A DNA stretch of 64,000 nt, from positions 15,789 to 79,788 of the forward strand of contig JAKQFQ010000359.1 in assembly GCA_029558315.1 (NCBI GenBank). Reading direction: 5' to 3'. This document shows positions 1,110-64,000 of this stretch, one piece after another. This stretch comes from Bacillota bacterium (lineage in GTDB: Bacteria > Bacillota > Clostridia > Lachnospirales > Lachnospiraceae). Position numbers and translations under genes: made by a program. The notes beneath the pieces were generated by a model. The model saw only the letters and a program-made list of their open reading frames with translations, made no database searches and was not told where the DNA came from. Every line of letters starts with the position of its first letter. Position 1 is the first letter of the stretch.

Positions 1110-1135
1110 AGCTAAGAAGCAGATGAAGGAGTAGT

Positions 1136-2881: not shown

Positions 2882-2887
2882 TCTGTA

Positions 2888-4282: not shown

Positions 4283-4294
4283 AAAGTAGGTCAA

Positions 4295-5440: not shown

Positions 5441-5462
5441 GAAATACAGATTGTGGTGTTTG

Positions 5463-5491
5463 TTGAAAGAAAGTGGCGTGTGTGTTATAAT
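5463..5491 (+). promoter_or_regulatory. Sigma-A-type promoter upstream of pseB
   Basis: TTGAAA (5463-5468), a 17-nt spacer ending in TGT (extended -10), then TATAAT (5486-5491). It sits in the 110-bp gap before pseB, one of only a few gaps longer than 80 bp in the window. Confidence 0.65.
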
Positions 5492-5550
5492 CTTTTTGTT
5501 TTTGCAGAACAATAGAGAATCGATTGAGATAGATAAGAGAGGTAAGAAAA

Positions 5551-6546: not shown

Positions 6547-6551
6547 TCAGG

Positions 6552-7601: not shown

Positions 7602-7613
7602 GGGTGGCAGAGA

Positions 7614-8645: not shown

Positions 8646-8657
8646 GAGATGTTTGTG

Positions 8658-9857: not shown

Positions 9858-9871
9858 CCCGGAGGAATACA

Positions 9872-10915: not shown

Positions 10916-10928
10916 GAGAGGGATTAAG

Positions 10929-22440: not shown

Positions 22441-22490
22441 TTACTTTGTGTAGCTACGGCCAGAATGAAACACAGTATGGAGAAGTATTA

Positions 22491-42001: not shown

Positions 42002-42044
42002 CACCCTTGTGGTTTTTTAATACTAGTAAAGGTTGTTGAGAACA

Positions 42045-43865: not shown

Positions 43866-43878
43866 AATGCCAGATAGG

Positions 43879-43909
43879 AAGAACCGGGATACCGGTTCTT
43901 TTCTATTCT
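43879..43909 (+). terminator. Rho-independent terminator
   Basis: 9-bp perfect stem AAGAACCGG / CCGGTTCTT with loop GATA, followed by TTCTATTCT. It starts 14 nt after the LtaS-like stop. It is the only clear hairpin plus T-tract I found in the window. Confidence 0.7.
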
Positions 43910-43964
43910 GAATATCATATGGTACAAGAAAAATGTTTGCATGTGGTATAACTACTATATTTCA

Positions 43965-43994
43965 TATACAAAACCCTGCAAAATATGGTATACT
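43965..43994 (+). promoter_or_regulatory. Candidate extended -10 promoter for the distal operon (asnB-like onward)
   Basis: TATACA (43965-43970), an 18-nt spacer, TGg, then TATACT (43989-43994). A second TGgTATAAC element lies at 43944-43952. Confidence 0.4.
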
Positions 43995-44110
43995 AAATTA
44001 CTAATGTGGTTTGATGGATTTATTATATATAATGCCATTGAGTGTTTAGATGGGCGGAATGATGGAATCCTAAGGATATTGCATGAAAGAATAGAAAGTC
44101 AGGATATTAC

Positions 44111-47154: not shown

Positions 47155-48883
47155 ACGACTGAAACAGTTATTGAATCAGAAGCAGAAAAGACAAGTTCTT
47201 TTGCTTATCTTTATGATTTTTGTCAGTGCTTTGCTGGAAACACTTGGTGTATCTATCATCGTACCATTGATTTCGGCTGTAGTCACTCCGGAGAAGCTTC
47301 TGGAGAATGAGACAGTTCAGAAGATATTTACGATATTTGGAGTGGCAATCACGGATAAAACTTTCTTTGTTAAATTGCTGCTTTTATGTACTATGGGTAT
47401 TTTTTTGCTGAAAAATATTTATCTGTTGTTTTTATACTATATTCAGGCGCGGTTCGTTACGAAGACGGAAGCGACAACATCCATCAGACTTTTAAATGAA
47501 TACTTGAATCGCCCTTACGAATTCTATCTCAATGCAGATGTTAATGCAATGTTTCAGACAATTAATAAGGATATACCGCATGTGTTTGAACTTTTACAGG
47601 AAGTGATGAAGCTTCTTACGGAGATTGCAGTCTCTATGTGTTTATGTACTCTCCTGTTTGTGGTGGACTTTAAGATGAGTCTGAGCATCTCTGTATTACT
47701 GTTGCTGATGGTGCTGTTTATTGTTTTTGTTCTAAAACCCAAGCTGGGCAATCTTGGACAAGGAAGACTAAAGCAACAGGTCTTGACAATGAAATGGATG
47801 CAGCAGGGAATCTTTGGAATTAAGGATGTTAAGGTTGCAGCCAAGGAAAAGTACTTCCTTGGGAAATTTGCAGATGCTTACACCAGACTTGCCGGAATTA
47901 TAAGGAAATATACGGTTTTTAATAACGCACCCAGACTTGTAATTGAGACTGTCTGTATTGTCGGATTACTTGGATATATGTTTCTGTGCATTGTCAAAGG
48001 AGAAGATATGAGCAGACTTTTGCCACAGTTAACAGCATTTGCGCTTGCTGCTGTGCGTCTGATGCCAAGTGTAAACCGTATCTCAACTCATTTATCAACA
48101 ATTGCATATTATGAGCCTTCTCTTAACTTTGTATGCGATAATTTAAATATTGCAGAGCTAAAAGATGTGGAAGAGAAAACATCAGCAGAGGTAATGGAAT
48201 TAAAACATTCGATCGAGCTAAAAGAGATTACCTATGCATATCCCAATACAGATCGAAAAATCTTTGATCGGGCCAGTATGAATATACCGGTTGGACAATC
48301 GGTGGGGGTTATTGGAAGTTCAGGTGCCGGCAAGACGACAATTATCGATGTGTTACTGGGACTGTTACAGCCCAAAGAGGGTAGTATCTGTTGTGATGGA
48401 AAAGCAATTTTGGAAGACGATATTTCCTGGCTTCATAATATTGGATATATTGCTCAGAATATCTATATGCTGGACAGCACTATACGTGATAACGTCGCAT
48501 TTGGTGTGGATACAAAGGATATGGATGAGCAAAGAATCTGGGAAGTTTTACGGGAAGCTCAGATGGAAGAGTATGTAAGAAAACTGCCGGAGGGGCTGGA
48601 TACCGTGATAGGAGATCGTGGCGTTCGTATTTCCGGAGGACAAAGACAGAGAATCGGAATTGCAAGGGCATTATATCATGATCCGGAGCTGCTGGTTTTT
48701 GATGAAGCAACCAGTGCGTTGGATAATGAAACAGAAGCAGCAATCATGGAGGCAATCAATGCTCTTAAGGGAAGAAAAACAATGGTAATTATTGCACATC
48801 GTCTTAAGACAATTGAAAGCTGTGATATGATTTACCGCGTTGAAAACGGTAAGATTACAAGAACTATTTTGGAGGAAACGTGA
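47141..48883 (+). CDS. ABC transporter, fused permease/ATPase half-transporter (PglK/MsbA-like), copy 2
   Basis: Start taken at MNVYKRLKQLLNQKQKR (ATG 47141). Walker A GSSGAGKTT, ISGGQRQR, LVFDEATSALD. Collinear with copy 1 (YEFYLNAD, GIKDVKV, NNAPRLVIETV, AAVRLMPS). Confidence 0.85.
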   Translation: MNVYKRLKQLLNQKQKRQVLLLIFMIFVSALLETLGVSIIVPLISAVVTPEKLLENETVQKIFTIFGVAITDKTFFVKLLLLCTMGIFLLKNIYLLFLYYIQARFVTKTEATTSIRLLNEYLNRPYEFYLNADVNAMFQTINKDIPHVFELLQEVMKLLTEIAVSMCLCTLLFVVDFKMSLSISVLLLLMVLFIVFVLKPKLGNLGQGRLKQQVLTMKWMQQGIFGIKDVKVAAKEKYFLGKFADAYTRLAGIIRKYTVFNNAPRLVIETVCIVGLLGYMFLCIVKGEDMSRLLPQLTAFALAAVRLMPSVNRISTHLSTIAYYEPSLNFVCDNLNIAELKDVEEKTSAEVMELKHSIELKEITYAYPNTDRKIFDRASMNIPVGQSVGVIGSSGAGKTTIIDVLLGLLQPKEGSICCDGKAILEDDISWLHNIGYIAQNIYMLDSTIRDNVAFGVDTKDMDEQRIWEVLREAQMEEYVRKLPEGLDTVIGDRGVRISGGQRQRIGIARALYHDPELLVFDEATSALDNETEAAIMEAINALKGRKTMVIIAHRLKTIESCDMIYRVENGKITRTILEET

Positions 48884-52088: not shown

Positions 52089-53138
52089 ATGAAACTGATT
52101 ATACAGATTCCCTGCTATAATGAAGCAGAGACATTGGAAATTGCATTGAATGATCTGCCAAGGCATCTGGATGGAATTGATGAGATTGAATATCTGATAA
52201 TTAATGACGGAAGTAAAGATAATACCGTTGAAGTGGCAATGAACTGGGGTGTTCATCATGTCATCAGCTTTACCAGAAATAAGGGACTTGCCAAAGGCTT
52301 TATGGCAGGTATCGAAGCAAGTCTTTCTTATGGTGCGGATATCATCGTTAATACAGATGCGGACAATCAGTATTGCGGAGAAGACATTGCCAAATTGATT
52401 GAGCCTATTTTACAGGGAAATGCGGATATTGTAATTGGCGAGCGGCCGATTGATCAGACAGATCATTTCTCCTTTATTAAGAAGAAATTACAACACTTTG
52501 GCAGTTGGGTTGTACGAAAAGCATCGAAAACAGATATCCCGGATGCTCCTTCCGGATTCAGAGCATTTTCCAGAGAGGCAGCAATGCACATAAATGTCAT
52601 CAATGAGTATACCTATACGCTGGAGACGATTGTACAGGCTGGGCGGAATAAAATGGCGATTACGTCTGTTCCAATCAGAACAAATCCGGAGTTAAGGAAG
52701 TCCAGATTATTCAGCAGTATGGGTTCCTACATCAAAAAGTCAATGCTGACGATTCTAAGAGCACTATTAATGTATCGCTCTCTGGCATGTCTGACGATTG
52801 TTGGCGCGTTGCCGTTTTTGGCTGGTTTTGCGCTCAGTGTCAGATTCCTGATTTATTATATCAACGGAAGAAATTCCGGACATATTCAATCGCTGATACT
52901 GGCATGTACGCTAATGATTATGGGATTTATGACCTTTGTCATTGGTATGCTGGCAGATGTATTATCTGCGAACCGAAAGATTATGGAGGATGTGCAGTAC
53001 CATGTTCGTAAGCTGACTTATGATGAATCAGATGCAAAGGTTTGGCAGGAGGCTGCAACACAAAGCATTGGACTGGAGAATCCGGAGGGCAATCCTGACA
53101 GTGTGAGTGGGACAACGACGGAGGATACAAAAGTTTGA
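52089..53138 (+). CDS. GT2 polyprenyl-phosphate hexosyltransferase-like enzyme with C-terminal TM helices
   Basis: LIIQIPCYNEAETL...LIINDGSKDNT...NKGLAKGF...NTDADNQY, then two C-terminal hydrophobic helices (CLTIVGALPFLAGFALSV; LILACTLMIMGFMTFVIGMLADV). Confidence 0.75.
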   Translation: MKLIIQIPCYNEAETLEIALNDLPRHLDGIDEIEYLIINDGSKDNTVEVAMNWGVHHVISFTRNKGLAKGFMAGIEASLSYGADIIVNTDADNQYCGEDIAKLIEPILQGNADIVIGERPIDQTDHFSFIKKKLQHFGSWVVRKASKTDIPDAPSGFRAFSREAAMHINVINEYTYTLETIVQAGRNKMAITSVPIRTNPELRKSRLFSSMGSYIKKSMLTILRALLMYRSLACLTIVGALPFLAGFALSVRFLIYYINGRNSGHIQSLILACTLMIMGFMTFVIGMLADVLSANRKIMEDVQYHVRKLTYDESDAKVWQEAATQSIGLENPEGNPDSVSGTTTEDTKV

Positions 53139-53935
53139 ATAAGGAACCGTTAGTTACAATATTTGTCTTAATCTATAATAATCCGGATGGACTTAAGACA
53201 ACTGTGGATTCGTTACTGAATCAAACCTACAGGAATGCAGAGATTCTGTTAAGTGATGACGGATCTACAAAGTACGACACTGCTATTCTGGAAGATTATG
53301 CAAAGAGATTGAGAAAGAAATATCATCAGGTAAGAGTGAATGTTAATGATAAAAATGTTGGAACTGTTCGGCATTTAAACAAGGTATTTCAAATGGCTAA
53401 GGGAGAATATCTGTTTAGCTGCAGCTCCGGAGACCGTTTTCACAGTAATACTACGGTAGAATGCCTGGTTGAAGCATTCCTTCGAAAGAATGCGTTAATC
53501 ATCACAACAAGACGATATGATGTGGACAAAGAGTTACATCATAGGATGAAACCTTTTATTCTGGTTGGCATGGCATTACGACTGGCACCACGAAAGCTGA
53601 TGAACTATATGGTGAGAAAAAGGAATCTGCTGAGTGGCTGCTGTACCTTTTACCGAAAAGAGTTGTTTGAGCAATACGGATATCATGATGAAGATTATTT
53701 CCTTGTCGAAGATTATCCTTACTATATTGATTTGCTGCGAAGAAATATCAGGATTAACTGGTCACCGCTTGTTACTATCGATCATGAAATCGGTGGTGTA
53801 TCAACGGGAAAGGTGCATCCGGGAATCTATCGGGACATCGAATTGCTAAGAGAGAAGCTATATCCAATACGATCGGAGTTTGATCGCTCCACAAGAGTTT
53901 TTTTGGAGAAGTGTCATAACAAAATGGAGGATTAA
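53135..53935 (+). CDS. GT2-family glycosyltransferase (soluble)
   Basis: TTG start overlapping the upstream TGA. VTIFVLIYNNPDGLKTTVDSLLNQTYRNAEILLSDDGST. Confidence 0.7.
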   Translation: MNKEPLVTIFVLIYNNPDGLKTTVDSLLNQTYRNAEILLSDDGSTKYDTAILEDYAKRLRKKYHQVRVNVNDKNVGTVRHLNKVFQMAKGEYLFSCSSGDRFHSNTTVECLVEAFLRKNALIITTRRYDVDKELHHRMKPFILVGMALRLAPRKLMNYMVRKRNLLSGCCTFYRKELFEQYGYHDEDYFLVEDYPYYIDLLRRNIRINWSPLVTIDHEIGGVSTGKVHPGIYRDIELLREKLYPIRSEFDRSTRVFLEKCHNKMED

Positions 53936-53936
53936 G

Positions 53937-54338
53937 ATGGAAATAAAGAAATATCCTTTACAGCAACATGGGGATGCAAGGGGACATTTGGTTGCACTGG
54001 AAGAAAAAATTGATGTGCCATTTGAAATCAAGCGTGTATACTATATGTTTGATACAAAGCCAGGCGTGGTTCGTGGCATGCATGCACATAAGTCTCTGGA
54101 ACAATTGCTGGTATGTGTTCATGGTTCAGTGAAAATTTTGTTGGACAATGGAACCGAAAAAGAGACAGTTGTACTGGATAATCCATATGAAGGTCTCTAT
54201 GTGTCAAATAGTATGTGGCGAGAAATGTCAGAGTTCTCAGAGGGGGCAGTTCTGATGGTATTTGCATCGAAATACTATGATGAAACAGATTATATTAGAG
54301 ATTATGATGAGTTCTTAAAATCAGTCGGCAGAAAGTAG
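53937..54338 (+). CDS. FdtA/WxcM-like cupin: dTDP-4-keto-6-deoxyhexose 3,4-ketoisomerase
   Basis: HGDARGHLVALE...FEIKRVYYMFD...VRGMHAHKSLEQLLVCVHGSV is the FdtA/QdtA-type signature. 133 aa from ATG 53937. Confidence 0.7.
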   Translation: MEIKKYPLQQHGDARGHLVALEEKIDVPFEIKRVYYMFDTKPGVVRGMHAHKSLEQLLVCVHGSVKILLDNGTEKETVVLDNPYEGLYVSNSMWREMSEFSEGAVLMVFASKYYDETDYIRDYDEFLKSVGRK

Positions 54339-54361
54339 TGCAGAAAGGAAAGGTTATTGGA

Positions 54362-55321
54362 ATGGATAAGATTGCAGTTCTGATTCCGTGCTATAACGAG
54401 GAAAAAACAATAGAGAAAGTTGTCAGGGATGCCAGAAAGGCACTCCCGGAAGCGATTGTCTATGTTTATGATAATAATTCAACAGATCAAACGGTAGAGT
54501 ATGCACAAAAAGCCGGTGCCATTGTAAGACATGAATATAAACAAGGTAAGGGCAATGTAATCCGCAGAATGTTTCGGGAGATTGATGCTGTCTGCTATAT
54601 TATGGTAGATGGAGACGATACCTATCCGATGGAATATGCAAAGGAGATGGCAGACCAGGTCTTGGAAAAGCAGATGGACATGGTAGTGGGAGACCGCCTT
54701 TCTTCTACCTATTTTACACAGAATAAGCGGCCATTTCATAATCTGGGGAATTCGGTTGTCAGGAGTAGTATCAACCGACTGTTTCACTGCGAAATTAAGG
54801 ATATTATGACAGGATTTAGGGCATTATCCTATGAATTTGTCAAGAGTTACCCTGTATTAAGCAAAGGCTTTGAAATTGAAACAGAGATGACAATACATGC
54901 TGTTTTTAATCAGATGGCGATTGCCAATGTGGTAGTTGAGTATCGTGATCGGCCGGAGGGAAGCGAATCCAAGTTAAATACTTATTCTGATGGAATGAAG
55001 GTCCTTTCTTTGATCATTAAGCTTTATAAGAATTATAAGCCGCTGGCATTCTTTTCCTGGATGGCAGCTTTGATGACAGTAATCGCAGCAGTGCTGTTTT
55101 TCTGGGTGTTCGCCAGATTCTTAAATAGTGGTTTGGTTGAAAATATGCCAACGCTGATTGTCAGCGGATTTATTGAACTGGCTGCAGTACAGGCCTTTTT
55201 TGCAGGGATGATTTTATCTGATATGGTAACAAAAAATCGCCGGGAATTTGAACTTAATCTCAACGAGATTAGTAGAAGAAAACGTCAACTGAGTAAGATG
55301 GAAAGTGAGAACCAGCAGTAA
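54362..55321 (+). CDS. GT2 polyprenyl-phosphate glycosyltransferase-like enzyme with C-terminal TM helices
   Basis: AAAGGAAAGG RBS before ATG 54362 (the ORF opens at GTG 54338). IAVLIPCYNEEKTI...VYDNNSTDQT...MVDGDDTYP, then C-terminal helices (LAFFSWMAALMTVIAAVLFFWVF; LIVSGFIELAAVQAFFAGMIL). Confidence 0.75.
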   Translation: MDKIAVLIPCYNEEKTIEKVVRDARKALPEAIVYVYDNNSTDQTVEYAQKAGAIVRHEYKQGKGNVIRRMFREIDAVCYIMVDGDDTYPMEYAKEMADQVLEKQMDMVVGDRLSSTYFTQNKRPFHNLGNSVVRSSINRLFHCEIKDIMTGFRALSYEFVKSYPVLSKGFEIETEMTIHAVFNQMAIANVVVEYRDRPEGSESKLNTYSDGMKVLSLIIKLYKNYKPLAFFSWMAALMTVIAAVLFFWVFARFLNSGLVENMPTLIVSGFIELAAVQAFFAGMILSDMVTKNRREFELNLNEISRRKRQLSKMESENQQ

Positions 55322-56701
55322 ATGCAGGGAAGACATAAAATAGTAGAAAAATGGAAGATGAATAAGCAGGAAGGGCTGGCACTCTTGATTCTGGCAGCCT
55401 TTTACCTCATATTTTGTTTTACCTTTGGAGTGCAGATTTGTGCAGATTCCAATAGTTATATCAAGATGACAACAGCCAGAGAACCGGTATATCCATTGCT
55501 TCTGGCTATTTTTCGTTTCCTTTTTGGAGAAGTAAATTATCTGTTTTTTGTTGTAGTTTTTCAAAACCTGCTGATGGCTTATGCGGTCTGGAAAATTGTA
55601 ATATTTTGTACGCGAAAGTTTCAGCTGAAATGGTTCCTTACCTATGGAATGATCTTGTTTCATTTTGCGGTAGCTTTCTTATGCCAGTTTGCTGCAGGAC
55701 GAGCTTCTATTTATCCCAACAGTATTTTGACAGAGGGAATTACATTATCCTTATGGCTTCTGTTTATCTGTAAGCTCCTTGAGGCATTGTATTCTGGAAA
55801 AATTAAACCAGTTGTAGGCGCAATGATTCTGGCAGCCATTATGATGGATACCAGAAAGCAGATGGCAATCACATATATTGTAATATTCGCAACATTGCTT
55901 TTGGGATGGATTGGAAGTAAAGGATATCTGAAAAAAATGGGAATAACATTGGGGATGATTCTGCTCAGCATATTATTGGCAATTGGTGGAACGCGTCTCT
56001 ACAATTATTCATTACATGGTGCTTTTGCCCAGAATACAAGAGATATGAATCTGGTACTGACCACGACGCTTTATGTTGCGGATCGTGAAGATGCCGCTCT
56101 AATTGAAGAAGAATCAGTAAGGAACTTATTTATTACTGTATTTGATATCTTAGATGAGGAAGAGTGCAACTATCGTTATGCAGGCGAAGGCTGGAGAAAC
56201 CTTGAGGCACATTATGGTGCTCACTATGATACAATTACGGTGGATACAACCGGTCCGATGTTCATTGAGTATGCAATTGCAGAAGGATTTGCAGAAGGAT
56301 TGCCGGCGGAACAGGAAGCAGACCGTATGAGTGCGGTGATTGTCCAATCACTTTTAATAGACAATCTTTCCACCTATGCATCTGTATATTTATCTTCAGC
56401 GTTGAATGGAATGATTAACAGTATTGCGAAGCGAGGCGGTCTGTTAGACTACTACGCTTTATTCGCCTATATGATTTATCTAATTCTTATGTTAAAATGT
56501 CTTTTGAATAGAGAGAGCCGTACAATTGGGCTAATGGCATTGACAGTCTTTATTGGGATTGCGGTGAATGTTGGTGTGGCAGCAGCTCTGATTTTTTGCC
56601 AGACACGATATATGATTTATAACATGGCATTGTTCTATATGGCACTTTTGCTGATGCTTTGGATTACAGGCAGCAGCTTTTTCGAAAAACGAAAGAAATA
56701 G
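55322..56701 (+). CDS. Polytopic membrane protein, ArnT/PMT_2-like GT-C candidate; paralog of 20922-22316
   Basis: Starts the nucleotide after the upstream stop. ADSNSYIKMTTAREPVYPLLLAIFRFLF and ILTEG blocks are shared with the minus-strand gene at 20922-22316. Confidence 0.55.
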   Translation: MQGRHKIVEKWKMNKQEGLALLILAAFYLIFCFTFGVQICADSNSYIKMTTAREPVYPLLLAIFRFLFGEVNYLFFVVVFQNLLMAYAVWKIVIFCTRKFQLKWFLTYGMILFHFAVAFLCQFAAGRASIYPNSILTEGITLSLWLLFICKLLEALYSGKIKPVVGAMILAAIMMDTRKQMAITYIVIFATLLLGWIGSKGYLKKMGITLGMILLSILLAIGGTRLYNYSLHGAFAQNTRDMNLVLTTTLYVADREDAALIEEESVRNLFITVFDILDEEECNYRYAGEGWRNLEAHYGAHYDTITVDTTGPMFIEYAIAEGFAEGLPAEQEADRMSAVIVQSLLIDNLSTYASVYLSSALNGMINSIAKRGGLLDYYALFAYMIYLILMLKCLLNRESRTIGLMALTVFIGIAVNVGVAAALIFCQTRYMIYNMALFYMALLLMLWITGSSFFEKRKK

Positions 56702-56732: not shown

Positions 56733-58511
56733 ATGAGAGCAATTGGTGATATTTTACACAAGTTAAACTATATCATGAACCGTAAACAGAAACAGCAGTA
56801 TGTATTAGTTACTGCTGCTGCATTTGTCGGATCAATGTGGGAATTACTTGGTGTTACTACGGTACTGCCATTTATTGAGTCTATCATGACGCCGGAAAAA
56901 ATGACTGAAAAGTGGTATGTTAATTTTCTGGTTCGTATTTTCCATCCACAGTCAAACCTTGATATGATAACCATGCTGGGTGTATTGATTATTTGCGTCT
57001 ATATTCTGAAGAATATTTATCTGATGTTTTCATCTTATGTACAGGCATGGTATTCAACAGGTGTACAGAGAGATTTATCAATTAAAATGTCCAATACATT
57101 TCTTCATAGTTCTTATCTGTTTCATCTGAATGTGAATTCCGCTGTGCTGATTCGAAGTATTAACCAGGATGTAGTTGGTGTGTTTGCAGTTTTCTTTTAT
57201 CTGTTTCGTATTTTGGCAGAAGTCTTTACGATTGTGGCAATTAGTGTATATATCATTTATCTGGACCCAATTCTTGCGATCTCGCTAGTTGGAATTCTTG
57301 GTTCATGTATGCTGATTCTTTTCTTTGGATTGAAAAAACTGGTTAAGAGATTTGGAAGGATTGGTCAGGATTGTGATGGTAAGATGCTGCAGTATTTAAC
57401 GCAGGCATTTAACGGAATCAAAGAAATTATGGTAATGAATCGACAGGAATACTTCCAACAAAGCTTTAGTAAATCCTGTACGTTAAGTGCCAAAGCAGCG
57501 AAAAGAAATAATTTCCTGAATGTCATTCCGGTAAATATCTATGAAGTTGTATGTATCGGAGGCCTCATTGGCATTGTAATAATCAGGCTGCATATGAATG
57601 TTGACGTCGCAGAATTTATTACGAAGCTTGCAATCATTGCAGTTGCAGCATTTCGGTTATTTCCTGCAGTAAGTCGGTTGACTACTAATCTGAATGCAAT
57701 CATGTATAATCGTCCCAGACTGGATTCCATGTATGATATGCTAAAAACAATAGAATGTGAAGATGATTATAAACTAAAAGATATTGATGAGAGTAAAGTA
57801 ATTGCTTTGAAATTTGAAAACGAATTATCAATCAATAAAATCACCTGGAAATATCCTTCAGGCCAGGAAGCTGTGTTACAGGATTTGAGTCTTTGCATTC
57901 AAAAAGGACAGTCTATTGCATTGATTGGACCATCCGGAGCCGGTAAGACAACATTGGCTGATGTGATTCTAGGACTGCTCAATCCGCAAAAAGGGCATAT
58001 TCTGCTGGATGGAGTGGATGTTTATGACAACCTGCCCGGTTGGTCTAAGATTATTGGATATGTTCCTCAGGCAGTCTATCTGACGGATGATAATATTAGA
58101 AATAATGTAGCATTTGGTATCTATGAGGATCAGATAGATGAAGACAAAGTCTGGAAAGCACTGGAAGAAGCGCAGTTAGCTGATTTTGTCAGACATTTGG
58201 AGGAAGGTCTGAACACAATGGTAGGAGAGCGAGGGGTTCGTTTGTCTGGCGGACAAAGACAGCGTATCGCGATTGCGAGAGCACTATATGAAAACCCTGA
58301 GATTCTTGTCCTGGATGAGGCAACCAGTGCGTTGGATACGGAGACAGAGACTGCAGTAATGGAATCGATTGATTCCCTGCATGGAAGCAAGACGATGATT
58401 ATAGTGGCACACAGACTGACAACAATTCGTAATTGTGATGCAATTTACGAGATTAAGGATGGAGTCGCAATACGCAGAAACAAAGAGGAAATAGTCGGAG
58501 AGAACGCATGA
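56733..58511 (+). CDS. ABC transporter, fused permease/ATPase half-transporter (PglK/MsbA-like), copy 3
   Basis: GGAGAA RBS. Walker A GPSGAGKTT, LSGGQRQR, LVLDEATSALD. The N-terminal pattern RKQKQQ...WELLGVTTVLP is shared with copies 1 and 2. Confidence 0.85.
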   Translation: MRAIGDILHKLNYIMNRKQKQQYVLVTAAAFVGSMWELLGVTTVLPFIESIMTPEKMTEKWYVNFLVRIFHPQSNLDMITMLGVLIICVYILKNIYLMFSSYVQAWYSTGVQRDLSIKMSNTFLHSSYLFHLNVNSAVLIRSINQDVVGVFAVFFYLFRILAEVFTIVAISVYIIYLDPILAISLVGILGSCMLILFFGLKKLVKRFGRIGQDCDGKMLQYLTQAFNGIKEIMVMNRQEYFQQSFSKSCTLSAKAAKRNNFLNVIPVNIYEVVCIGGLIGIVIIRLHMNVDVAEFITKLAIIAVAAFRLFPAVSRLTTNLNAIMYNRPRLDSMYDMLKTIECEDDYKLKDIDESKVIALKFENELSINKITWKYPSGQEAVLQDLSLCIQKGQSIALIGPSGAGKTTLADVILGLLNPQKGHILLDGVDVYDNLPGWSKIIGYVPQAVYLTDDNIRNNVAFGIYEDQIDEDKVWKALEEAQLADFVRHLEEGLNTMVGERGVRLSGGQRQRIAIARALYENPEILVLDEATSALDTETETAVMESIDSLHGSKTMIIVAHRLTTIRNCDAIYEIKDGVAIRRNKEEIVGENA

Positions 58512-59656
58512 AAATCCTGTTCATCACGCATTATGACAATATGTATGGAGCGAATCAGGCCTTATACCGGCTGATTCGTTGTCTGAAAACAGTGCATGAA
58601 GAAGAACCTATGCTTGTCATACCTGCTACAGGAGAAATGACAGAAGAGATGGACAAATTAGGCGTTCCCTGCCTGATTAGCCCCATCACTCAATGGCAGG
58701 GGGTTTATACTACTCCCGGTAGATTCCTGATTAAGAAAATGATACGTAGGAAAGCGATAGCCAGAGAAGTTGAGAGCCTATATTTACAATTAAAGGATCA
58801 GAACATTGATGTAATACATTCTAATTCAAGTGTAATCGGAACTGGTGCGATGCTGGCTTCCAAGCTGGGATGTCGTCATATCTGGCATATCAGAGAGTTT
58901 TCCAGGGAACATTTTCATATGAAGTATTTCTATGGTATGCGAATGGTTCGAAGGTTGTATGAAAGTGCAGATTATGTAATCGCAATTTCGGATGCTTTAA
59001 AGATGAATTACCTGGAGAAATATCCTAAGGCAAATGTAATTCGTATTTATGATGGAGTGAATTGGAATTCTGTGGAAGAAACACAGACAAAAGAGCGTGC
59101 GCTGGATGCACCCATACGTTTTTGCTATCTGGGCTATCTATTTCCAATGAAACATCAGCTCGAAGTATTGGAAGGATGCAGGCAACTGAATCAGTCAGGT
59201 TTTACTAATTATGAGTTTTGGTTGATTGGTGATGGAAAAGAGAAGTATCAGAAAAAACTCAGGAAAATGATTAAACAGTATAATCTGACACAAGTGAAAA
59301 TGCCGGGATATGTTGAAAACGCGGCTTTGTTATTAAATACGATGGATGTGGGCGTTATTGCTTCAGAGTATGAAGGCTTTGGCCTGGTAACGGTTGAGTA
59401 CATGCTTCATGGTCTTCCTGTAATTGGCTACCGAAGCGGTGGAACAGTTGAAATTATTCAGGATGGAATCACAGGTTGTTTAGTTCATTCGAGGGAAGAA
59501 TTTGTTGCAGCTATGAAGTATATGATGGAGAATCAGGAACGAAGAACACGTATGGGAGAAGCGGGGAAGGAAAGAGCCAAAGTCTGCTTTACAGAAGAAC
59601 AGAATGCTTCACTGATTGCACAGGTATACGAAAAGATAAGGAAAGGAGCAATCTAA
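58508..59656 (+). CDS. GT4 glycosyltransferase
   Basis: ATGA overlap with the ABC gene. ILFITHYDNMYGANQAL; ASEYEGFGLVTVEYMLHGLPVIGYRSGGTVEIIQDGITG. Confidence 0.8.
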   Translation: MKILFITHYDNMYGANQALYRLIRCLKTVHEEEPMLVIPATGEMTEEMDKLGVPCLISPITQWQGVYTTPGRFLIKKMIRRKAIAREVESLYLQLKDQNIDVIHSNSSVIGTGAMLASKLGCRHIWHIREFSREHFHMKYFYGMRMVRRLYESADYVIAISDALKMNYLEKYPKANVIRIYDGVNWNSVEETQTKERALDAPIRFCYLGYLFPMKHQLEVLEGCRQLNQSGFTNYEFWLIGDGKEKYQKKLRKMIKQYNLTQVKMPGYVENAALLLNTMDVGVIASEYEGFGLVTVEYMLHGLPVIGYRSGGTVEIIQDGITGCLVHSREEFVAAMKYMMENQERRTRMGEAGKERAKVCFTEEQNASLIAQVYEKIRKGAI

Positions 59657-59657
59657 A

Positions 59658-60554
59658 TTGTTCATCATAAGATTTCATGGTGGTTTGGGTAATCAAATGT
59701 TTCAGTATGCGTTTTATCAGTATGTGGAAAACTATATTACGAAGGATTTGAAAGCGGATCTAACCTGGTTTGATAGAAATAAAAAGGAACATCAGGGTTA
59801 TGAATTGGAAAAAGTATTCGGAATACGAATGCCGGTAGCAAGCTATGAAGAGGTAGCAAGAGTTCATGAGTATTATCCCAGATATTATCCACTGGCCGGT
59901 TTGCGGTATCTAGCCAGAAATAATGCGGCAAGAAAGAATCGTGGAAGAGATACTACGGCTTCACACATTTTTGATTTTGGCGAGAAACAATATGTTTTTA
60001 ATAATATCTATGAGAGTCTTGATCTGAGTAAAGATTGGTATATTGAGGGTGTATTTTGCTCAGATGCTTACTTAAGAAAATGCGAGAGCAAAGTTAAATC
60101 CAGTTTTAACTTTATAACAAAACTGGAAGGAATGAATCTTTCAGCATCAGAAGCAATGAAAGATTGTGAATCCGTAGCAATACATGTCAGGCGGGGTGAT
60201 TATGTAGGGAATGTTTTTGACATTTTAGATTTATCCTATTATCAAAATGCTGTCGAAGAGATGAAAAAGAGAGTAAAGAAACCTGTTTTCTATATCTTTT
60301 CAGATGATATGGATTACGTTCGGGAGAAGTTTACATTTATTGAAGATGGAATCCCTGTTCATAATGTAGGCCAGGCCAGTTATATGGATATGAAGCTGAT
60401 CAGCTGTTGTAAGCATGCAATTATAGCCAACAGTACCTTTAGCTACTGGGGAGCATTACTGGGAGAGACCCCTGCGAGTATCATTATTGCGCCAAAGAGA
60501 TATAAAGCAGATGAGCAGGTAGCTCTTGCCAGAGGTAATTGGATAAAAATGTAG
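59658..60554 (+). CDS. GT11-family alpha-1,2-fucosyltransferase
   Basis: TTG start with an AGGAG RBS. GGLGNQMFQYAFY, HVRRGDY and STFSYWGA are the three hallmark GT11 (FutC/WbsJ-type) motifs. Confidence 0.85.
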   Translation: MFIIRFHGGLGNQMFQYAFYQYVENYITKDLKADLTWFDRNKKEHQGYELEKVFGIRMPVASYEEVARVHEYYPRYYPLAGLRYLARNNAARKNRGRDTTASHIFDFGEKQYVFNNIYESLDLSKDWYIEGVFCSDAYLRKCESKVKSSFNFITKLEGMNLSASEAMKDCESVAIHVRRGDYVGNVFDILDLSYYQNAVEEMKKRVKKPVFYIFSDDMDYVREKFTFIEDGIPVHNVGQASYMDMKLISCCKHAIIANSTFSYWGALLGETPASIIIAPKRYKADEQVALARGNWIKM

Positions 60555-60569
60555 TATCGTGGAGGATGT

Positions 60570-61511
60570 ATGAATCTTGAATGGAAGTATAAAAGAATAT
60601 ACTGGAAAGTAAGAAAGTATCTGGATGTACATTTAAAGATTCGTTTTTCAAGAAATCGCTATAATGGACAACAGATTTTATCCATAGCGGATACAAACAA
60701 TCAATTGGAGCAACTGATTGTTTCTGGAAAGCCATTTGCTGTTGGAAGAATCGGCGGAACGGAATTGAAAGCGATGGTTGCCTGTCAGAAAGAATTTCAT
60801 GATCTTAAAGAAAAAGAAAGCTGCAGGAGTCTGCTTATATGTCTATCCGGCTTTTATGGTGATATGAAGGAATTTGAGCGCTTTGGAAAACTAATGGAGA
60901 TTTCGCTGAAAGAAATAGATCTGGTTGGAGTCTGGTATAATCAGATGGAAGACTATATGCTGAAGCATTATGCGGCCAATACAACTAAGTATGGGAAGTT
61001 AGAGGGATTAGAGCCGTGGTATTGTAAGGAGAAGCCGTGGAGTCGTGCATTAAAAGGCAAAAAAGTAGTGTGTATTCATCCTTTTGCAGAAAGTATTATG
61101 GCGCAATATGAGAAACGAGAGCAATTATTTCCGGGTTTAGAGATTCTTCCGGAATTTGAGCTTCGTTGTGTGAAAGCAGTGCAGACGTTATTTGGACAGG
61201 AAGATAAGAGATTCGCTTCATGGTTTGATGCCCTGGACTATATGGTAGAAGAAGCGATGAAGGAAGAGTTTGATGTTGCGCTGATTGCCTGTGGTGCATA
61301 TGGATTGCCATTGGCAGCACGATTAAAACAGAAAGGCAAACAGGCGATACATGTTGGTGGTGCGTTACAGCTATTATTTGGTATTCGAGGCAGCAGGTGG
61401 GATGATTTTGAGGAGTTGAATACAGTATATAATGATGCCTGGCAGTATCCATTAGCCTGCGATCAGCTGACGACCGGAAATGATAATGTTGAGAATGGAT
61501 GTTATTGGTAA
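60570..61511 (+). CDS. Hypothetical protein, possible GT-D-fold (DUF1792-like) glycosyltransferase
   Basis: ILSIADTNNQLEQLIVSGKPFAVGRIGGTELKAM resembles the DUF1792 N-terminus (ARFGDGE) as I recall it. C-terminal IACGAYGLPLAARLKQKGKQAIHVGGALQLLFGI. Confidence 0.3.
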   Translation: MNLEWKYKRIYWKVRKYLDVHLKIRFSRNRYNGQQILSIADTNNQLEQLIVSGKPFAVGRIGGTELKAMVACQKEFHDLKEKESCRSLLICLSGFYGDMKEFERFGKLMEISLKEIDLVGVWYNQMEDYMLKHYAANTTKYGKLEGLEPWYCKEKPWSRALKGKKVVCIHPFAESIMAQYEKREQLFPGLEILPEFELRCVKAVQTLFGQEDKRFASWFDALDYMVEEAMKEEFDVALIACGAYGLPLAARLKQKGKQAIHVGGALQLLFGIRGSRWDDFEELNTVYNDAWQYPLACDQLTTGNDNVENGCYW

Positions 61512-62659
61512 TGGAGCAAAAGAAAGAACAGAAGAAAGTATTAATTGCAAATGGATGCTTTTATCTTGGAGTTCTCTGTGAACTCCTTGTTTCTGTATCC
61601 GGCTATGCGTACGGAGGATATAAGGAACCTTGGATTATTATCCTGGGAATGCTGTTATTCTCTGTAAAAATTCTTCTGACTATGCATTTGAGACAGGACT
61701 GGCCGGTGTTCCTTGGCTGTGCGGTATTTGGACTTCTCTGTTTCTGCTTTCAAGGTTCGGCGTTAGTGTTAAGGATTGCACTGATTTTATTAGCCGGAAG
61801 AGATCAACAGGCGAAAAAAGTGATGAAACTCTTTTTCTTTGGAACATTGGCAATAATGATTATAACAGCGATTTTATCGGTGTTGGGACTCCATAATACG
61901 ATGAGTCTGACGCAGGTATTTCGAAATGAACCAGAGACCAGATACTGTTTTGGATTTTTTCATCCGAATGGATTTTCCTTTTTCTGGATGAAAGTACTTG
62001 CTCTTGGATTTTATTGTTACTATGATCGCTTAAAGTGGTGGGGATATTTCATCATCTGCAGTTTGGGCTTTGGCTTGTTTTTGCTCGCAAACTCCAAGAC
62101 GGGAATTGCAGGGTGTATCTTATTGATGATGGGTACAATTGTAATCCGCTATTGTCATAAGACGTGGGTGAATCAATTGATTTATTATGCCGGAGGAATT
62201 TTGATGGCATCAGAGATTGCCCTGGTACTTATTACGATGTATTTTTTTGAAGCACAACCGGGAACAACAGCAGGTGTCGGAATCTGGAATGTCTTTAATA
62301 TTTTGACCACCGGCCGTTTCTATTTTATTCATAAAACAGCAATGGAAGTCCCGCTTCCATGGTTTGGATATCAGGGATTTATGGAAGCCACGGAGGTTGG
62401 TTTTGTGAATGCCCTTTATAATCAGGGAATTCTCTTCTTTAATATTTACCTTGTGATTTTAGTATGGATTTACCGTAAAATGTATCAGAAGAAGGATTCT
62501 ATGGGAATGCTGTTGATTGTTGTATTTACCTTTTATTCACTGGGAGAAGCCTTTCTTCCGTATGTTAATAAAAATGTAGTATTAATGCTATGCATCGGAG
62601 TGATTCCGGCATTAACATTGAAAAGAAGTAAAGATAAGGCGGTGGCAGAACATGAATGA
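61499..62659 (+). CDS. Polytopic membrane protein, Wzy-like oligosaccharide repeat-unit polymerase candidate
   Basis: About 10 hydrophobic segments. FHPNGFSFFW...LLANSKTGIAGCILL resembles O-antigen polymerase loops. An alternative start at ATG 61511 overlaps the upstream TAA. Confidence 0.45.
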   Translation: MLLVMEQKKEQKKVLIANGCFYLGVLCELLVSVSGYAYGGYKEPWIIILGMLLFSVKILLTMHLRQDWPVFLGCAVFGLLCFCFQGSALVLRIALILLAGRDQQAKKVMKLFFFGTLAIMIITAILSVLGLHNTMSLTQVFRNEPETRYCFGFFHPNGFSFFWMKVLALGFYCYYDRLKWWGYFIICSLGFGLFLLANSKTGIAGCILLMMGTIVIRYCHKTWVNQLIYYAGGILMASEIALVLITMYFFEAQPGTTAGVGIWNVFNILTTGRFYFIHKTAMEVPLPWFGYQGFMEATEVGFVNALYNQGILFFNIYLVILVWIYRKMYQKKDSMGMLLIVVFTFYSLGEAFLPYVNKNVVLMLCIGVIPALTLKRSKDKAVAEHE

Positions 62660-63665
62660 AATGCGAAAGATTAAGATCAATTATGTGGATTTCTGGCCGG
62701 GATTGGACAAGAAAGATAACTTTTTCTATAATATTCTGGTTCACTATTATGACGTGGAAATCAGTGATTCTCCGGATTATGTTTTCTGCAGTTGCTTTGG
62801 GAATGAACATTTCAAATATACCAACTGTGTAAAGATCCTATTTCTTGGAGAAAATATAGTTCCTGATTTTAATCTTTATGATTATGCAATGGGATTCCAC
62901 TATATTGATTTTGAAGATCGATACTTACGATTGCCGCTTTATGTATTGTATAGTAAAAAAATTATTAATGCTGCACTTACGAAGCATACATTTACAACCA
63001 AGTATTATCTTGAAAAGAAAAAGTTTTGCAATTTTGTTATTTCGAATCCTTATGCAGCAAGTGAGAGAGATGCTATGATTGATGCGCTAAATCAGTATCA
63101 GACGGTTGATTCTGGCGGAAGATATCGAAACAATGTTGGGGGACCGGTTGCTGATAAAATGGAATTTGTTAAGAATTATCGATTCACAATGGCATTTGAG
63201 AATTCATCCATGAATGGATATACAACGGAAAAGATACTGGAGGCATTTGCGGGAGATACCATTCCGATTTACTGGGGAAGTTCCAGAATTGCTGAGGAGT
63301 TCAATCCGGAGGCATTTATAAATTGTCATGCGTATTCCTCGTTCGATGAGGTGATACAACGTGTTCGAGAGATTAATGAGAACGAGGAATTGTATTTACA
63401 GATGATAACTGCACCAATGGTTACGAAAGAGAGCCAGGCAGTACAATATTTAGAAGATGGATATGCAGATGCTTTTTTAAGAAGAATTTTTGATCAACAA
63501 CCACAAATGGCTATTCGAAGAAATATGGTATATATAGGACGTGATTATCAGAAACGTTTAAGTGATGATAAGAAGATAGAAAGCATTTTGAATGTGATTC
63601 GTAAACCAATACACTTATGGAATAAAAAGAAAGCACAATGGAAATCGAGAAAGGATAAGAAGTAA
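62652..63665 (+). CDS. GT10-family alpha-1,3/4-fucosyltransferase
   Basis: YRFTMAFENSSMNGYTTEKILEAFAGDTIPIYWGS matches the GT10 core (H. pylori FutA: FNLCFENS..GYVTEKI..A....IPIYWG). KILFLGEN upstream block. Confidence 0.85.
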   Translation: MNEMRKIKINYVDFWPGLDKKDNFFYNILVHYYDVEISDSPDYVFCSCFGNEHFKYTNCVKILFLGENIVPDFNLYDYAMGFHYIDFEDRYLRLPLYVLYSKKIINAALTKHTFTTKYYLEKKKFCNFVISNPYAASERDAMIDALNQYQTVDSGGRYRNNVGGPVADKMEFVKNYRFTMAFENSSMNGYTTEKILEAFAGDTIPIYWGSSRIAEEFNPEAFINCHAYSSFDEVIQRVREINENEELYLQMITAPMVTKESQAVQYLEDGYADAFLRRIFDQQPQMAIRRNMVYIGRDYQKRLSDDKKIESILNVIRKPIHLWNKKKAQWKSRKDKK

Positions 63666-64000
63666 ATGAAAGCTGTGGAATCAAAAAGCAGAAATCTATA
63701 TGGTAGGATGATGATAATCAATGCCTTGTTTTTTTTGCTTTTACATTTAACATTTGTTGGATTTACCAATGATGATGCTTTTTTTGTTATCGTAAGGAGC
63801 CAATGGGATTCTTTAATAGATTTACTGATTCACCGATATCTTACAGATTCCTCCCGGGTATTATCAGAAGCGATTCTATTTACGCTAATCAGACTTCCCT
63901 TTCTTGTGTGGCAGATTCTGGATACTGCAATCTGTATTTTAGTATATCACTCCTTAACTGTGATTTTTGTAAATGATAAGAAGAGTAAAAACAATGTGCT
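63666..64000 (+). CDS. Polytopic membrane protein, 5-prime partial (runs off the window end), DUF6056/GT-C-like
   Basis: ATG 63666 directly follows the GT10 stop. My own translation is MKAVESKSRNLYGRMMIINALFFLLLHLTFVGFTNDDAFFVIV... and stays open to nt 64000. It is not in the ORF track because it has no stop. Confidence 0.5.
   Translation, partial: MKAVESKSRNLYGRMMIINALFFLLLHLTFVGFTNDDAFFVIVRSQWDSLIDLLIHRYLTDSSRVLSEAILFTLIRLPFLVWQILDTAICILVYHSLTVIFVNDKKSKNNV

Follow-up and report, generated by a model that had tools for sequence, protein, structure and literature searches.

We analysed a 64,000-nt stretch of DNA, here called the window, from an uncultured member of the Lachnospiraceae (Bacillota/Clostridia) of gut or manure type, so the Gram-positive host named in an initial annotation is correct. 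That annotation had placed six open reading frames at 56733–63665, and all six were recovered at exactly these positions:

56733–58511, + strand: PglK/Wzk-like ABC half-transporter with fused transmembrane and nucleotide-binding domains (TMD + NBD), 592 aa
58508–59656, + strand: GT4 (retaining GT-B) glycosyltransferase, soluble, 382 aa (Pfam Glycos_transf_1 6.4e-31, Glyco_transf_4 1.3e-10)
59658–60554, + strand: GT11-family fucosyltransferase, 298 aa, TTG start (Pfam PF01531)
60570–61511, + strand: GT-D-fold-like protein, 313 aa (Pfam PF22882)
61499–62659, + strand: membrane protein with 9–10 TM segments, 386 aa, Wzy_C/WaaL superfamily
62652–63665, + strand: GT10-family fucosyltransferase, H. 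pylori FucT type, 337 aa

These genes are tightly packed, with intergenic spacing of -13 to +15 nt and 31 nt upstream of the ABC gene; the ABC stop and GT4 start codons share nucleotides (ATGA), and GGAG-type sites lie upstream of several start codons. From 44111 to the window end the largest intergenic gap is 31 nt. Promoter and terminator matches did not exceed the frequency seen in shuffled sequence. The module had been described as terminal, which holds for the window only: the next gene begins at 63666, directly 3' of the GT10 stop codon, and the cluster runs on for ~19 kb past the window end. The six genes lie inside a ~93-kb co-directional cell-envelope glycan super-locus, in which more than 30 transferases and three PglK-like ABC paralogues (mutually 35–45% identical) occupy one region with no visible module boundaries. 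The two other ABC paralogues and the many other transferases make the limits of our module uncertain. A nonulosonic-acid gene set lies in the window as well, and the locus carries an MBOAT/FkbH/ACP set. Other genes that enter the argument are:

24064–25467, within the window: another Bac_transf phosphoglycosyl transferase gene
52089–53138, + strand: GtrB-like GT2 with C-terminal TM segments (Pfam Glycos_transf_2 1.3e-24)
53135–53935, + strand: soluble GT2 glycosyltransferase (Pfam Glycos_transf_2 1.4e-25)
53937–54338, + strand: FdtA-like dTDP-4-keto-6-deoxyhexose 3,4-isomerase (Pfam FdtA 5.5e-52)
54338–55321, + strand: second GtrB-like GT2 with C-terminal TM segments (Pfam Glycos_transf_2 6e-18)
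55322–56701, + strand: membrane protein with about 10 TM segments (TM prediction)
63666–64000, + strand: start of a 448-aa DUF6056/GT_STM0557_N (GtrC-like) membrane protein, running off the window
L001 13921–14835: further inverting GT2

The 52089–53138 product, with TM segments at about residues 220–287, is by its sequence of the polyprenyl-phosphate glycosyltransferase type and a member of a conserved block upstream of the module (83% identity in L011, L013–L015 and L017). Its soluble GT2 neighbour is 46–59% identical across 12 related loci, and the second GtrB-like protein, with two TM segments, is 76–85% identical in related loci. The FdtA gene appears in the public gene call as 133 aa. 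The 55322–56701 product had no Pfam or NCBIfam match, and we regard it as a candidate for glycosyl transfer on the outside face. It shares 28% identity with the 20922–22316 product (minus strand) and is conserved at 64–69% identity in L007–L012, L021 and L024. The DUF6056 gene, complete in L001 (11015–12361), matches PF19528 at 1.2e-14 and immediately follows GT10 in 11 related loci (62–69% identity). Farther downstream of GT10 are a second GT11 gene and a Bac_transf initiating enzyme gene, the latter ~16 kb away in the same organism (L033, overlap 99.9% identical) and downstream in relatives too.

The motifs reported for the two fucosyltransferases (GGLGNQMFQYA, HVRRGDY and STFSYWGA; FENS..GYTTEKI..IPIYWG) were all found in the translations. 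GT11 matches Pfam Glyco_transf_11 (PF01531) at 2.3e-30 over residues 4–296 of 298 and is a predicted alpha1,2-fucosyltransferase; NCBI gives an identical protein, HPF28473.1, the name alpha-1,2-fucosyltransferase. GT10 matches Pfam FucT_N (1.2e-32) and Glyco_transf_10 (1.5e-22), as well as the H. pylori FucT structure (PDB 2NZW, E 2.5e-48). We checked six residues of H. pylori FucT, and GT10 keeps each of them, E95, R195, N240, Y246, E249 and K250 corresponding to E67, R139, N184, Y190, E193 and K194, and we predict an alpha1,3/4-fucosyltransferase. The pairing of GT11 and GT10 with the ABC gene in one overlapping or abutting series is therefore confirmed, with motifs and catalytic residues intact.

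The ABC protein is polytopic (Pfam ABC_tran 2.6e-33, ABC_membrane 7e-8), with intact Walker A, signature and Walker B motifs. Its PglK/Wzk-like label is well founded. PglK was the top NCBIfam model at 342 bits, far under the 1000-bit equivalog cut-off, followed by MsbA (298) and HepA (294); the protein lies under every NCBIfam equivalog cut-off. PglK was also the best solved half-transporter match (PDB 5C73, full-length score 267 bits; MsbA, 204 bits), with residues 9–578 collinear with 3–559, and the sole PDB match of the TMD alone (E 6e-11). PglK residues R86, R260, R302 and R309 correspond to K93, V267, R308 and R315, so that three of four cavity positive charges are kept and R260 is replaced by valine. 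We propose from these matches that the ABC protein is the flippase for an undecaprenyl-PP-linked glycan, and from synteny alone we infer its tie to these particular transferases. The subthreshold equivalog scores, with MsbA and HepA not far under PglK, the unconserved R260 and the presence of three paralogues among so many transferases would also suit a transporter that exports a different super-locus product or a non-glycan, the fucosyl glycan crossing by other means and the adjacency reflecting dense module packing. We give this little credence: the end of the ABC gene includes the GT4 start codon, the gene adjoins GT4-(GT11-GT-D)-Wzy_C-like-GT10 in 12 other genomes despite differing glycosyltransferase content, the membrane domain of its product matches only PglK, no window ORF matched the MOP/Wzx family, and the window gave no sign of an ABC-2 (Wzm/Wzt) transporter.

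Two module proteins called for closer assignment. The 60570–61511 product, formerly an "unknown protein", is probably a glycosyltransferase with a GT-D-like fold; it matches PF22882, a family of more than 4600 members, at 6.2e-8 (32.7 bits, cut-off 27), and the top three Foldseek PDB matches to its AF2 model (pLDDT 93) are the DUF1792 GT-D structures 4PFX, 4PHR and 5V4A (E 1.5e-4 to 1.6e-3). The 61499–62659 product itself had no Pfam match, and hhalign found no match between it and the window's other Wzy_C-like protein; among its family, 8 of 32 members matched Wzy_C (best E 7.8e-10). Its AF2 model (pLDDT 88.7) gave WaaL 7TPG first in Foldseek (E 0.018, probability 1.0, TM 0.43), then RodA. 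R142, R148 and R273 are invariant in the family and H155 nearly so, and all four lie in non-helical loops of the model. Homologues and fold thus hint at a divergent Wzy_C/WaaL superfamily member, perhaps a polymerase, perhaps a ligase; the earlier term "Wzy-like" holds at the level of the superfamily and does not separate these two roles. GT4, GT11, GT-D-like and GT10 proteins all lack TM segments, whereas the ABC and Wzy_C-like proteins each cross the membrane several times, so that cytoplasmic nucleotide-sugar chemistry followed by flipping would be the natural order.

We found ABC-GT4-Wzy_C-like-GT10 in 12 other Lachnospiraceae genomes (34–81% identity); Lachnospiraceae bacterium AB2028 is an isolate that carries the block. 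GT10 belongs to the conserved core of this block, with homologues at 61–72% identity in 16 further Lachnospiraceae genomes. GT11 was found in 7 of the 12 related loci and missing in the other five, and is thus an accessory gene. These patterns bear on the proposal that GT11 and GT10 act on type 1/type 2 chains to give H, Lewis x/y and Lewis a/b epitopes exported by a Wzk-like route. An H. pylori-type GT10 with its checked catalytic and donor residues all kept, a GT11 in the same operon-like series, and a PglK/Wzk-like ABC protein and WaaL-like protein at hand would fit such a pathway. The inverting GT2 enzymes at 53135–53935 and L001 13921–14835 could in principle make beta-Gal/beta-GlcNAc linkages, as GT2 enzymes do for the S. 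pneumoniae type 14 capsule. However, GT10 or GT11 family membership does not reveal acceptor specificity; characterised bacterial GT11s vary in acceptor, and one of them, HhFT2 of H. hepaticus, forms an alpha1,3 linkage (PMC4202792). The window has no GT25-type LacNAc or Gal transferase, the module's other transferases being a retaining GT4 and a GT-D-like enzyme; no H. pylori-style phase-variable (poly-C) tracts were found; and one sample carrying the same organism is a swine manure lagoon. With GT11 accessory as well, the step to Lewis/H host mimicry was not borne out, and we consider it very unlikely. A GT10 in a clade-conserved block with an accessory GT11 suits a cell-envelope polymer of the lineage, decorated in variable ways, better than a device dedicated to mimicry.

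The window does lack gmd, fcl and fkp, as first reported: none of its 52 non-shadow ORFs (at least 150 aa) was assigned to Gmd, Fcl or fucokinase. Its only GDP_Man_Dehyd-type matches are a PseB-like protein (5551–6546) and a TviC-like epimerase (30732–31709), which scored 45 bits on the TIGR01472 gmd model against a cut-off of 415, and tblastn with Gmd and Fcl probes gave SDR matches at 24–31% identity only. The three genes were likewise absent from ~93 kb around the module and, in 23 related loci, from the 10 kb on either side of GT10. This would be expected if no GDP-L-fucose were made and GT10 and GT11 used another GDP-6-deoxyhexose or salvaged fucose, or were inactive, a reading that we find highly doubtful. 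Three FucT-family genes are intact (HxRRGDY motif, H. pylori FucT catalytic residues) and 61–72% identical across species, which argues for a working donor supply. FdtA is encoded but rmlA and rmlB are missing from the locus, with neither product among the window ORFs, so precursor genes are evidently unlinked in this organism. Moreover, fucose has been reported among the neutral sugars of exopolysaccharide (EPS) from Butyrivibrio, another of the Lachnospiraceae (PMC2914790).

We lean towards a module that contributes to a surface glycan that contains fucose and is assembled on undecaprenyl diphosphate. The sequence shows which genes are there, their families, the kept catalytic residues and the synteny; from these we infer the glycan's lipid carrier, step order, flipped substrate, donor, acceptor and final epitope. 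A Bac_transf phosphoglycosyl transferase would start the lipid-linked oligosaccharide on undecaprenyl phosphate. The soluble GT4, GT-D-like, GT11 and GT10 enzymes, with neighbouring GT2/GT4 enzymes and the second GT11, would extend it at the cytoplasmic face, two or three FucT-family enzymes adding L-fucose from GDP-fucose made by unlinked genes. The PglK-like ABC half-transporter would flip the finished undecaprenyl-PP-glycan, which the Wzy_C/WaaL-superfamily protein may then polymerise or ligate to a wall or lipid acceptor. We saw no wall ligase of the LCP type. Outside the membrane, the GtrB-like GT2 and polytopic membrane proteins and the MBOAT/FkbH/ACP set could add decoration. We would describe the product as a fucose-containing polysaccharide or oligosaccharide of the cell surface and not as a Lewis or H mimic.

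Pfam Wzy_C spans O-antigen ligases, Wzy polymerases and PglL-type O-oligosaccharyltransferases, and nonulosonic-acid gene sets, such as the one in the window, are often tied to protein glycosylation. The Wzy_C match of the 61499–62659 family and the WaaL fold match would therefore also suit a PglL/WsaB-type O-oligosaccharyltransferase passing a fucosylated oligosaccharide to S-layer, pilin, flagellin or other surface proteins, and PglK itself works in protein glycosylation. We judge this unlikely: no S-layer, flagellin or pilin gene was seen in ~93 kb, the number of transferases and the MBOAT/FkbH decoration genes fit a polymer better, and sequence does not tell ligases, polymerases and oligosaccharyltransferases apart.

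A close counterpart of such a route is the H. pylori Lewis O-antigen pathway (WecA, FutA/B GT10, FutC GT11, Wzk, WaaL; Hug et al. 2010, PMC2841628), in which a PglK homologue of relaxed specificity flips complete fucosylated undecaprenyl-PP glycans. Both have GT10, GT11, a PglK-homologous ABC half-transporter and a WaaL/Wzy_C protein, no Wzx, and predicted assembly at the cytoplasmic face before flipping; the position of the WaaL/Wzy_C protein between GT11 and GT10 strengthens the formal parallel with the WecA-Wzk-WaaL route. The differences are that the module genes form one operon-like series whereas those of H. pylori are scattered, that the host is monoderm without a lipid A-core acceptor, that the nearby initiating enzyme is of Bac_transf rather than WecA type, and that the module has a GT10 without heptad repeats, no poly-C phase-variation tracts and no GT25-type Gal transferases. 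C. jejuni PglK (5C73), the flippase for the N-glycan lipid-linked oligosaccharide, shares collinear full-length likeness with the ABC protein; unlike it, the latter is one of three paralogues in a single locus, where neither the PglB oligosaccharyltransferase nor any other pgl gene is present.

The GT11-containing E. coli O86, O128 and O127 clusters have Wzx/Wzy and usually gmd and fcl within the cluster. As here, their GT11 enzymes (WbwK, WbsJ and WbiQ, respectively), with an HxRRxD motif, lie among repeat-unit transferases (PMC4202792), and GDP-fucose is the expected donor in both; unlike them, the module has an ABC half-transporter and no linked GDP-fucose genes. Within the same family, Butyrivibrio EPS loci share with our super-locus a very large glycan gene content, B. 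proteoclasticus B316 having 13 EPS loci with 363 genes (PMC2914790). None of these loci is biochemically characterised. Fucose is on record among the neutral sugars of the EPS. The report of fucose in Butyrivibrio EPS dates from 1988.

The six open reading frames of the module lie on the plus strand at exactly the coordinates proposed in the initial annotation, and every peptide motif quoted there was found in the translations.

Open reading frames of the module (window positions, strand, product, Pfam match)
56733-58511, +, ABC protein; ABC_membrane and ABC_tran
58508-59656, +, GT4; Glycos_transf_1, 6e-31
59658-60554, +, GT11; PF01531, 2.3e-30, full length
60570-61511, +, GT-D-like protein of 313 aa; PF22882, 6e-8, above threshold
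61499-62659, +, membrane protein of 386 aa; no Pfam family
62652-63665, +, GT10; FucT_N 1.2e-32 and Glyco_transf_10 1.5e-22

The module had been described as terminal, which is true only because the window stops there: a new open reading frame begins at 63666. The four transferases have no transmembrane segments; the ABC and 386-aa (Wzy_C-like) proteins are polytopic. Each component falls into a known family and had a name in public records before this analysis. MAG entries labelled "Lachnospiraceae bacterium" (Bacillota/Clostridia) include identical proteins, annotated there as alpha-1,2-fucosyltransferase, as a family 10 glycosyltransferase and as an ABC transporter.

GT10 scored 112.6 bits on FucT_N (cut-off 27.2) and 80.5 bits on Glyco_transf_10 (cut-off 23.9). 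Its type is that of H. pylori FucT (PDB entry 2NZW, E 2.5e-48). HpFucT residues E95, R195, N240, Y246, E249 and K250 correspond to E67, R139, N184, Y190, E193 and K194, and all are conserved. R195, N240, Y246 and K250 bind the donor, as Sun et al. 2007 reportedly found. In HpFucT, E95 has been proposed as catalytic base and E249 as stabiliser of the intermediate, and mutating either one leaves little activity (PMC4202792). At 337 aa the protein is shorter than the HpFucT chains in PDB (371 and 420 residues). Its C-terminus has no DDLRxNY heptad repeats, just the basic tail KKKAQWKSRKDKK; heptad repeats and amphipathic helices at this end are a feature of the H. pylori enzyme, not of the GT10 family as a whole.

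GT11 scored 106.3 bits on PF01531 (cut-off 23.9), covering residues 4-296 of 298, and its translation contains GGLGNQMFQYA, HVRRGDY and STFSYWGA. The HxRRxD motif functions in donor binding and is critical in characterised enzymes of the family (PMC4202792). A sequence search for a solved relative found none. We predict from its sequence an alpha1,2-fucosyltransferase with GDP-L-fucose as donor; the linkage is not fixed by family membership, because the GT11 member HhFT2 forms alpha1,3 linkages (PMC4202792). The gene starts with TTG at 59658, one base past the GT4 stop codon. The JGI gene call (285 aa) uses a later start and loses the conserved N-terminal GGLGNQMFQYA.

The 313-aa protein, previously listed as unknown, proved to have a family: it is a putative GT-D-like glycosyltransferase by PF22882 (32.7 bits, cut-off 27) and by fold. 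On NCBIfam GT-D_rel it reached 26.5 bits against a cut-off of 75, which makes it a distant GT-D relative. The family around it counts more than 4600 proteins, all uncharacterised. Its model (pLDDT 93) gave the DUF1792 GT-D structures 4PFX, 4PHR and 5V4A as the top three Foldseek hits, the sole convincing structural matches.

The 386-aa membrane protein had been labelled Wzy-like. It has no match of its own to Wzy_C (PF04932), and its homologues and fold place it in the Wzy_C/WaaL superfamily. Of 32 aligned homologues, 8 match PF04932 (best E 7.8e-10). An AF2 model (pLDDT 88.7) returned WaaL 7TPG at rank 1 in Foldseek (probability 1.0, E 0.018, TM 0.43) and RodA at ranks 2 and 3; beyond these, no probability exceeded 0.4. 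This likeness to the WaaL/SEDS fold is weak but specific. R142, R148 and R273 are invariant in the family and H155 nearly so, all in non-helical loops of the model. Together the homologue and model data point to a divergent superfamily member that may act as a polymerase, a ligase or an O-oligosaccharyltransferase. We detected 74 homologues, and all those with a source name are from Lachnospiraceae. The window has another Wzy_C-like protein (22446-24074), and an hhalign comparison of this family with it yielded a probability of just 0.5%, in a test made weak by a single-sequence template; the result lends no support to a shared family.

The ABC protein is a fused TMD-NBD half-transporter with intact ATPase motifs (GPSGAGKTT, LSGGQRQR and ILVLDEATSALD). 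The initial annotation had called it a PglK-like flippase, and PglK-like it genuinely is, with flipping as a predicted activity. Among NCBIfam models PglK scored best (342 bits; MsbA 298, HepA 294), and since this is far below the PglK equivalog cut-off of 1000 bits, we regard the protein as PglK-like, not as a PglK orthologue. PglK was likewise the best solved half-transporter in PDB (267 bits; MsbA 204), and the membrane domain alone gave a collinear match to PglK (E 6e-11), its sole match in the whole PDB. The PglK cavity arginines R86, R260, R302 and R309 are reportedly needed for flipping (Perez et al. 2015); their counterparts are K93, V267, R308 and R315, so that positive charge is retained at three of the four positions.

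Three PglK-like ABC paralogues, 35-45% identical, are encoded in the window (1136-2881, 47039-48883 and 56733-58511), each with a Bac_transf enzyme and a protein of EpsG or Wzy_C type in its vicinity. No window ORF gave a family match to a MOP/Wzx flippase. These two observations suggest that PglK-type ABC flippases replace Wzx in this lineage. To our knowledge such a replacement is little documented for Gram-positive polysaccharide pathways, and our literature search on PglK-like flippases in Gram-positives found nothing specific. The apparent use of three PglK-type ABC flippases, not Wzx, in a Gram-positive lineage is a moderately interesting aspect of the locus. Directly after the first ABC gene, at 2888-5440, lies a gene pair for an MBOAT and an AlgX-like SGNH protein, which probably form a module for O-acetylation of polysaccharide outside the cytoplasm.

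Glycan genes extend past both ends of the window. Three retrieved sequences extend the locus, L030 upstream and L001 and L033 downstream. L033 was recovered by an exact 38-nt search of metagenome contigs and is 99.94% identical to L001 in their overlap. A protein homologue search with an N-terminal fragment (140 aa) of the GT4 that comes next gave no match.

Gene content of the flanking sequences
L030, upstream 10 kb: one gene each for Bac_transf and EpsG, with a run of GT2 and GT4 genes
L001, downstream 10 kb, first part: a DUF6056/GT_STM0557_N membrane protein, a PMT_2-like membrane protein and a GT2
L001, remainder: MBOAT, FkbH_N, ACP, MaoC and SDR genes
L033, a further 9.6 kb downstream, in order: GT4, GT2, an unknown gene, GT2 and a second GT11
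L033 5642-4695, minus strand of L033: the second GT11, 315 aa; PF01531 6.7e-34; HIRRGDY and SNSSFSWW
L033, after the second GT11: a GT2, a 473-aa Bac_transf phosphoglycosyl transferase (initiating enzyme), a HAD-like gene and another GT2

With the window, these sequences make up about 93 kb of nearly unbroken, co-directional glycan genes. The second GT11 lies some 15 kb further downstream than GT10, at about 77.6-78.5 kb in window-equivalent coordinates, and is 35% identical to the first across the C-terminal half. Between 44111 and the end of the window, intergenic gaps measure 31 nt at most. Matches to promoter and terminator consensus sequences across 44-64 kb were as numerous as in shuffled sequence, and operon boundaries therefore could not be set. 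The boundaries first drawn around the module are therefore arbitrary. A 218-kb ENA contig carries the same locus, and so do several further metagenomes.

Some features of the window are noted here in passing. The last sizeable intergenic gap upstream of the module is one of 246 nt before 44111. At 42033-45979 are a 5-TM protein with a sulfatase domain (LtaS or phosphoglycerol-transferase-like) and, after it, an AsnB-like glutamine amidotransferase. All but two window genes are on the plus strand, GC skew is positive throughout the 64 kb (+0.11 to +0.29) and G+C is 36-43%; the strand bias and skew are typical of leading-strand gene packing in Bacillota. One of the only two real minus-strand genes (20922-22316) and a plus-strand gene (55322-56701) encode paralogous membrane proteins of about 10 TM segments, 28% identical and of no Pfam family.

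Scanning species-representative genomes with GT10 yielded 23 related loci, with which the window proteins were compared by tblastn. Module content varied as follows.

Module genes at related GT10 loci
Seven other Lachnospiraceae genomes (L007-L010, L012, L021, L024): ABC-GT4-GT11-GT-D-Wzy_C-like-GT10, 48-81% identity
L011: the same block without GT11
Four genomes, including isolate AB2028 (L013-L015, L017): ABC-GT4-Wzy_C-like-GT10, with neither GT11 nor GT-D
L018, L019: GT10 with just an adjacent GT4 and a distant GT-D-like gene; no ABC gene
L016, L020: GT10 alone, no other module gene

This distribution indicates that GT10 is core to a lineage-conserved envelope-glycan locus and that GT11 and GT-D are accessory. 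Conservation was highest for the two GtrB-like GT2 genes upstream (76-85% identical) and for the ABC gene (67-81%), and lowest for the GT4 and Wzy_C-like proteins. Conservation continues downstream: a DUF6056 membrane protein directly follows GT10 in 11 related loci, an MBOAT-FkbH-ACP-MaoC-SDR set lies downstream of it in most, and GT4-GT2-GT2-x-Bac_transf comes after that set in the relatives too. A homologue of the second GT11, 53% identical, is present in L008. At L001 14835-20601 the set reads MBOAT, a 329-aa unknown gene, FkbH_N, an 80-aa carrier protein (PP-binding), MaoC dehydratase and SDR, with the 329-aa gene left out of what is conserved; it looks like a Dlt-like system that would put an ACP-borne glyceryl or hydroxyacyl group on an extracellular glycopolymer. 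A literature search on Lachnospiraceae GT10 or GT11 found nothing specific. For now we regard this as an ordinary, though well-annotated, cluster of glycan genes; the module lies inside a glycan super-locus of unusual size that is conserved in a clade of Lachnospiraceae.

The pairing of two fucosyltransferases with a PglK-like ABC protein and a WaaL/Wzy_C-like partner was annotated correctly and usefully, and the most economical reading of it is a pathway of four stages. An undecaprenyl-PP-linked glycan would be assembled on the cytoplasmic face and fucosylated from GDP-fucose; the PglK-like ABC protein would flip it; the Wzy_C-like protein would polymerise or ligate it; and outside the membrane it would be decorated by GtrB/GT-C-type and MBOAT systems. 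We infer the carrier lipid, substrate, donor, acceptor and product alike. The scheme matches in its logic the WecA-Wzk-WaaL route of H. pylori, where fucosylated undecaprenyl-PP glycans are flipped in complete form by Wzk, an enzyme of relaxed specificity (PMC2841628). Should the pathway hold, a conserved fucose-bearing envelope glycan would be built by a widespread Lachnospiraceae group of rumen, gut and manure, using PglK-type ABC flippases and not Wzx.

Fucose in the surface polysaccharides of Lachnospiraceae is not new: the neutral sugars of Butyrivibrio EPS include it, according to Stack 1988 as cited in PMC2914790, and in B. proteoclasticus EPS accounts for 363 genes in 13 loci (PMC2914790). 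The initial annotation went further, proposing that the pair may build a Lewis/H-type epitope that mimics host glycans. We found no support for this. Acceptors differ among bacterial GT11 enzymes: T antigen for WbwK and WbiQ, Gal-beta1,4-Glc for WbsJ, and both Lewis x and type 1 chains for FutC (PMC4202792). A Lewis-antigen system of the H. pylori type would have enzymes for a LacNAc or type 1 backbone, namely a GlcNAc transferase and GT25-type galactosyltransferases; no window ORF matched Glyco_transf_25, and GT2 enzymes are present. Phase variation in the H. pylori style was rejected, because homopolymers do not exceed 7 nt and runs of poly-C or poly-G stay below 6. One metagenome with the locus, SRR13442943, came from a swine manure lagoon. 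The H. pylori system has a lipid A-core acceptor and WecA-type initiation, whereas the host here belongs to Bacillota/Clostridia and the initiating enzymes at the locus are of Bac_transf types. Host mimicry of Lewis/H type by this locus is speculation, and we think it improbable. Slightly less probable still is the broader reading, in which a monoderm Lachnospiraceae clade has PglK/Wzk-type ABCs replacing Wzx, with one route displaying a doubly or triply fucosylated Lewis/H-like epitope; if true, it would give the Lewis O-antigen pathway of H. pylori an equivalent in Gram-positives. Such mimicry would matter for immunology, and is at present unsupported. The locus offers a compact, soluble GT10 and GT11 as an enzyme resource, and a GT10 free of the H. 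pylori heptad-repeat tail may help in making fucosylated oligosaccharides.

As first noted, the window encodes no Gmd, Fcl or Fkp. Pfam and NCBIfam scans of all window ORFs that reach 150 aa and lie outside shadow frames gave only two matches of GDP_Man_Dehyd type, a PseB-like protein and a TviC-like epimerase; for the latter the gmd model TIGR01472 gave 45 bits (cut-off 415). Nor did Pfam labels and profile scans reveal gmd, fcl or fkp anywhere in the 93 kb or in the 10-kb flanks of the 23 related loci, and tblastn with E. coli Gmd and Fcl sequences, which served as probes only, matched just SDR proteins at 24-31% identity. The absence of these genes from the 93 kb and related flanks is weak negative evidence, and the three intact, conserved fucosyltransferase-family genes argue for the existence of a donor supply. 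An FdtA-like dTDP-4-keto-6-deoxyhexose 3,4-isomerase is encoded at 53937-54338, with RmlA and RmlB nowhere in the window, so nucleotide-sugar precursor genes are evidently unlinked from the locus. At 42-11621 a GT52 sialyltransferase-like gene adjoins a nonulosonic-acid gene set of pseudaminic or legionaminic type (PseB-like dehydratase, NeuB, a GT28_C (PseG-like) protein, DegT aminotransferase and a CMP-sugar cytidylyltransferase), and from this gene content the locus probably makes a sialic-acid-like sugar too.
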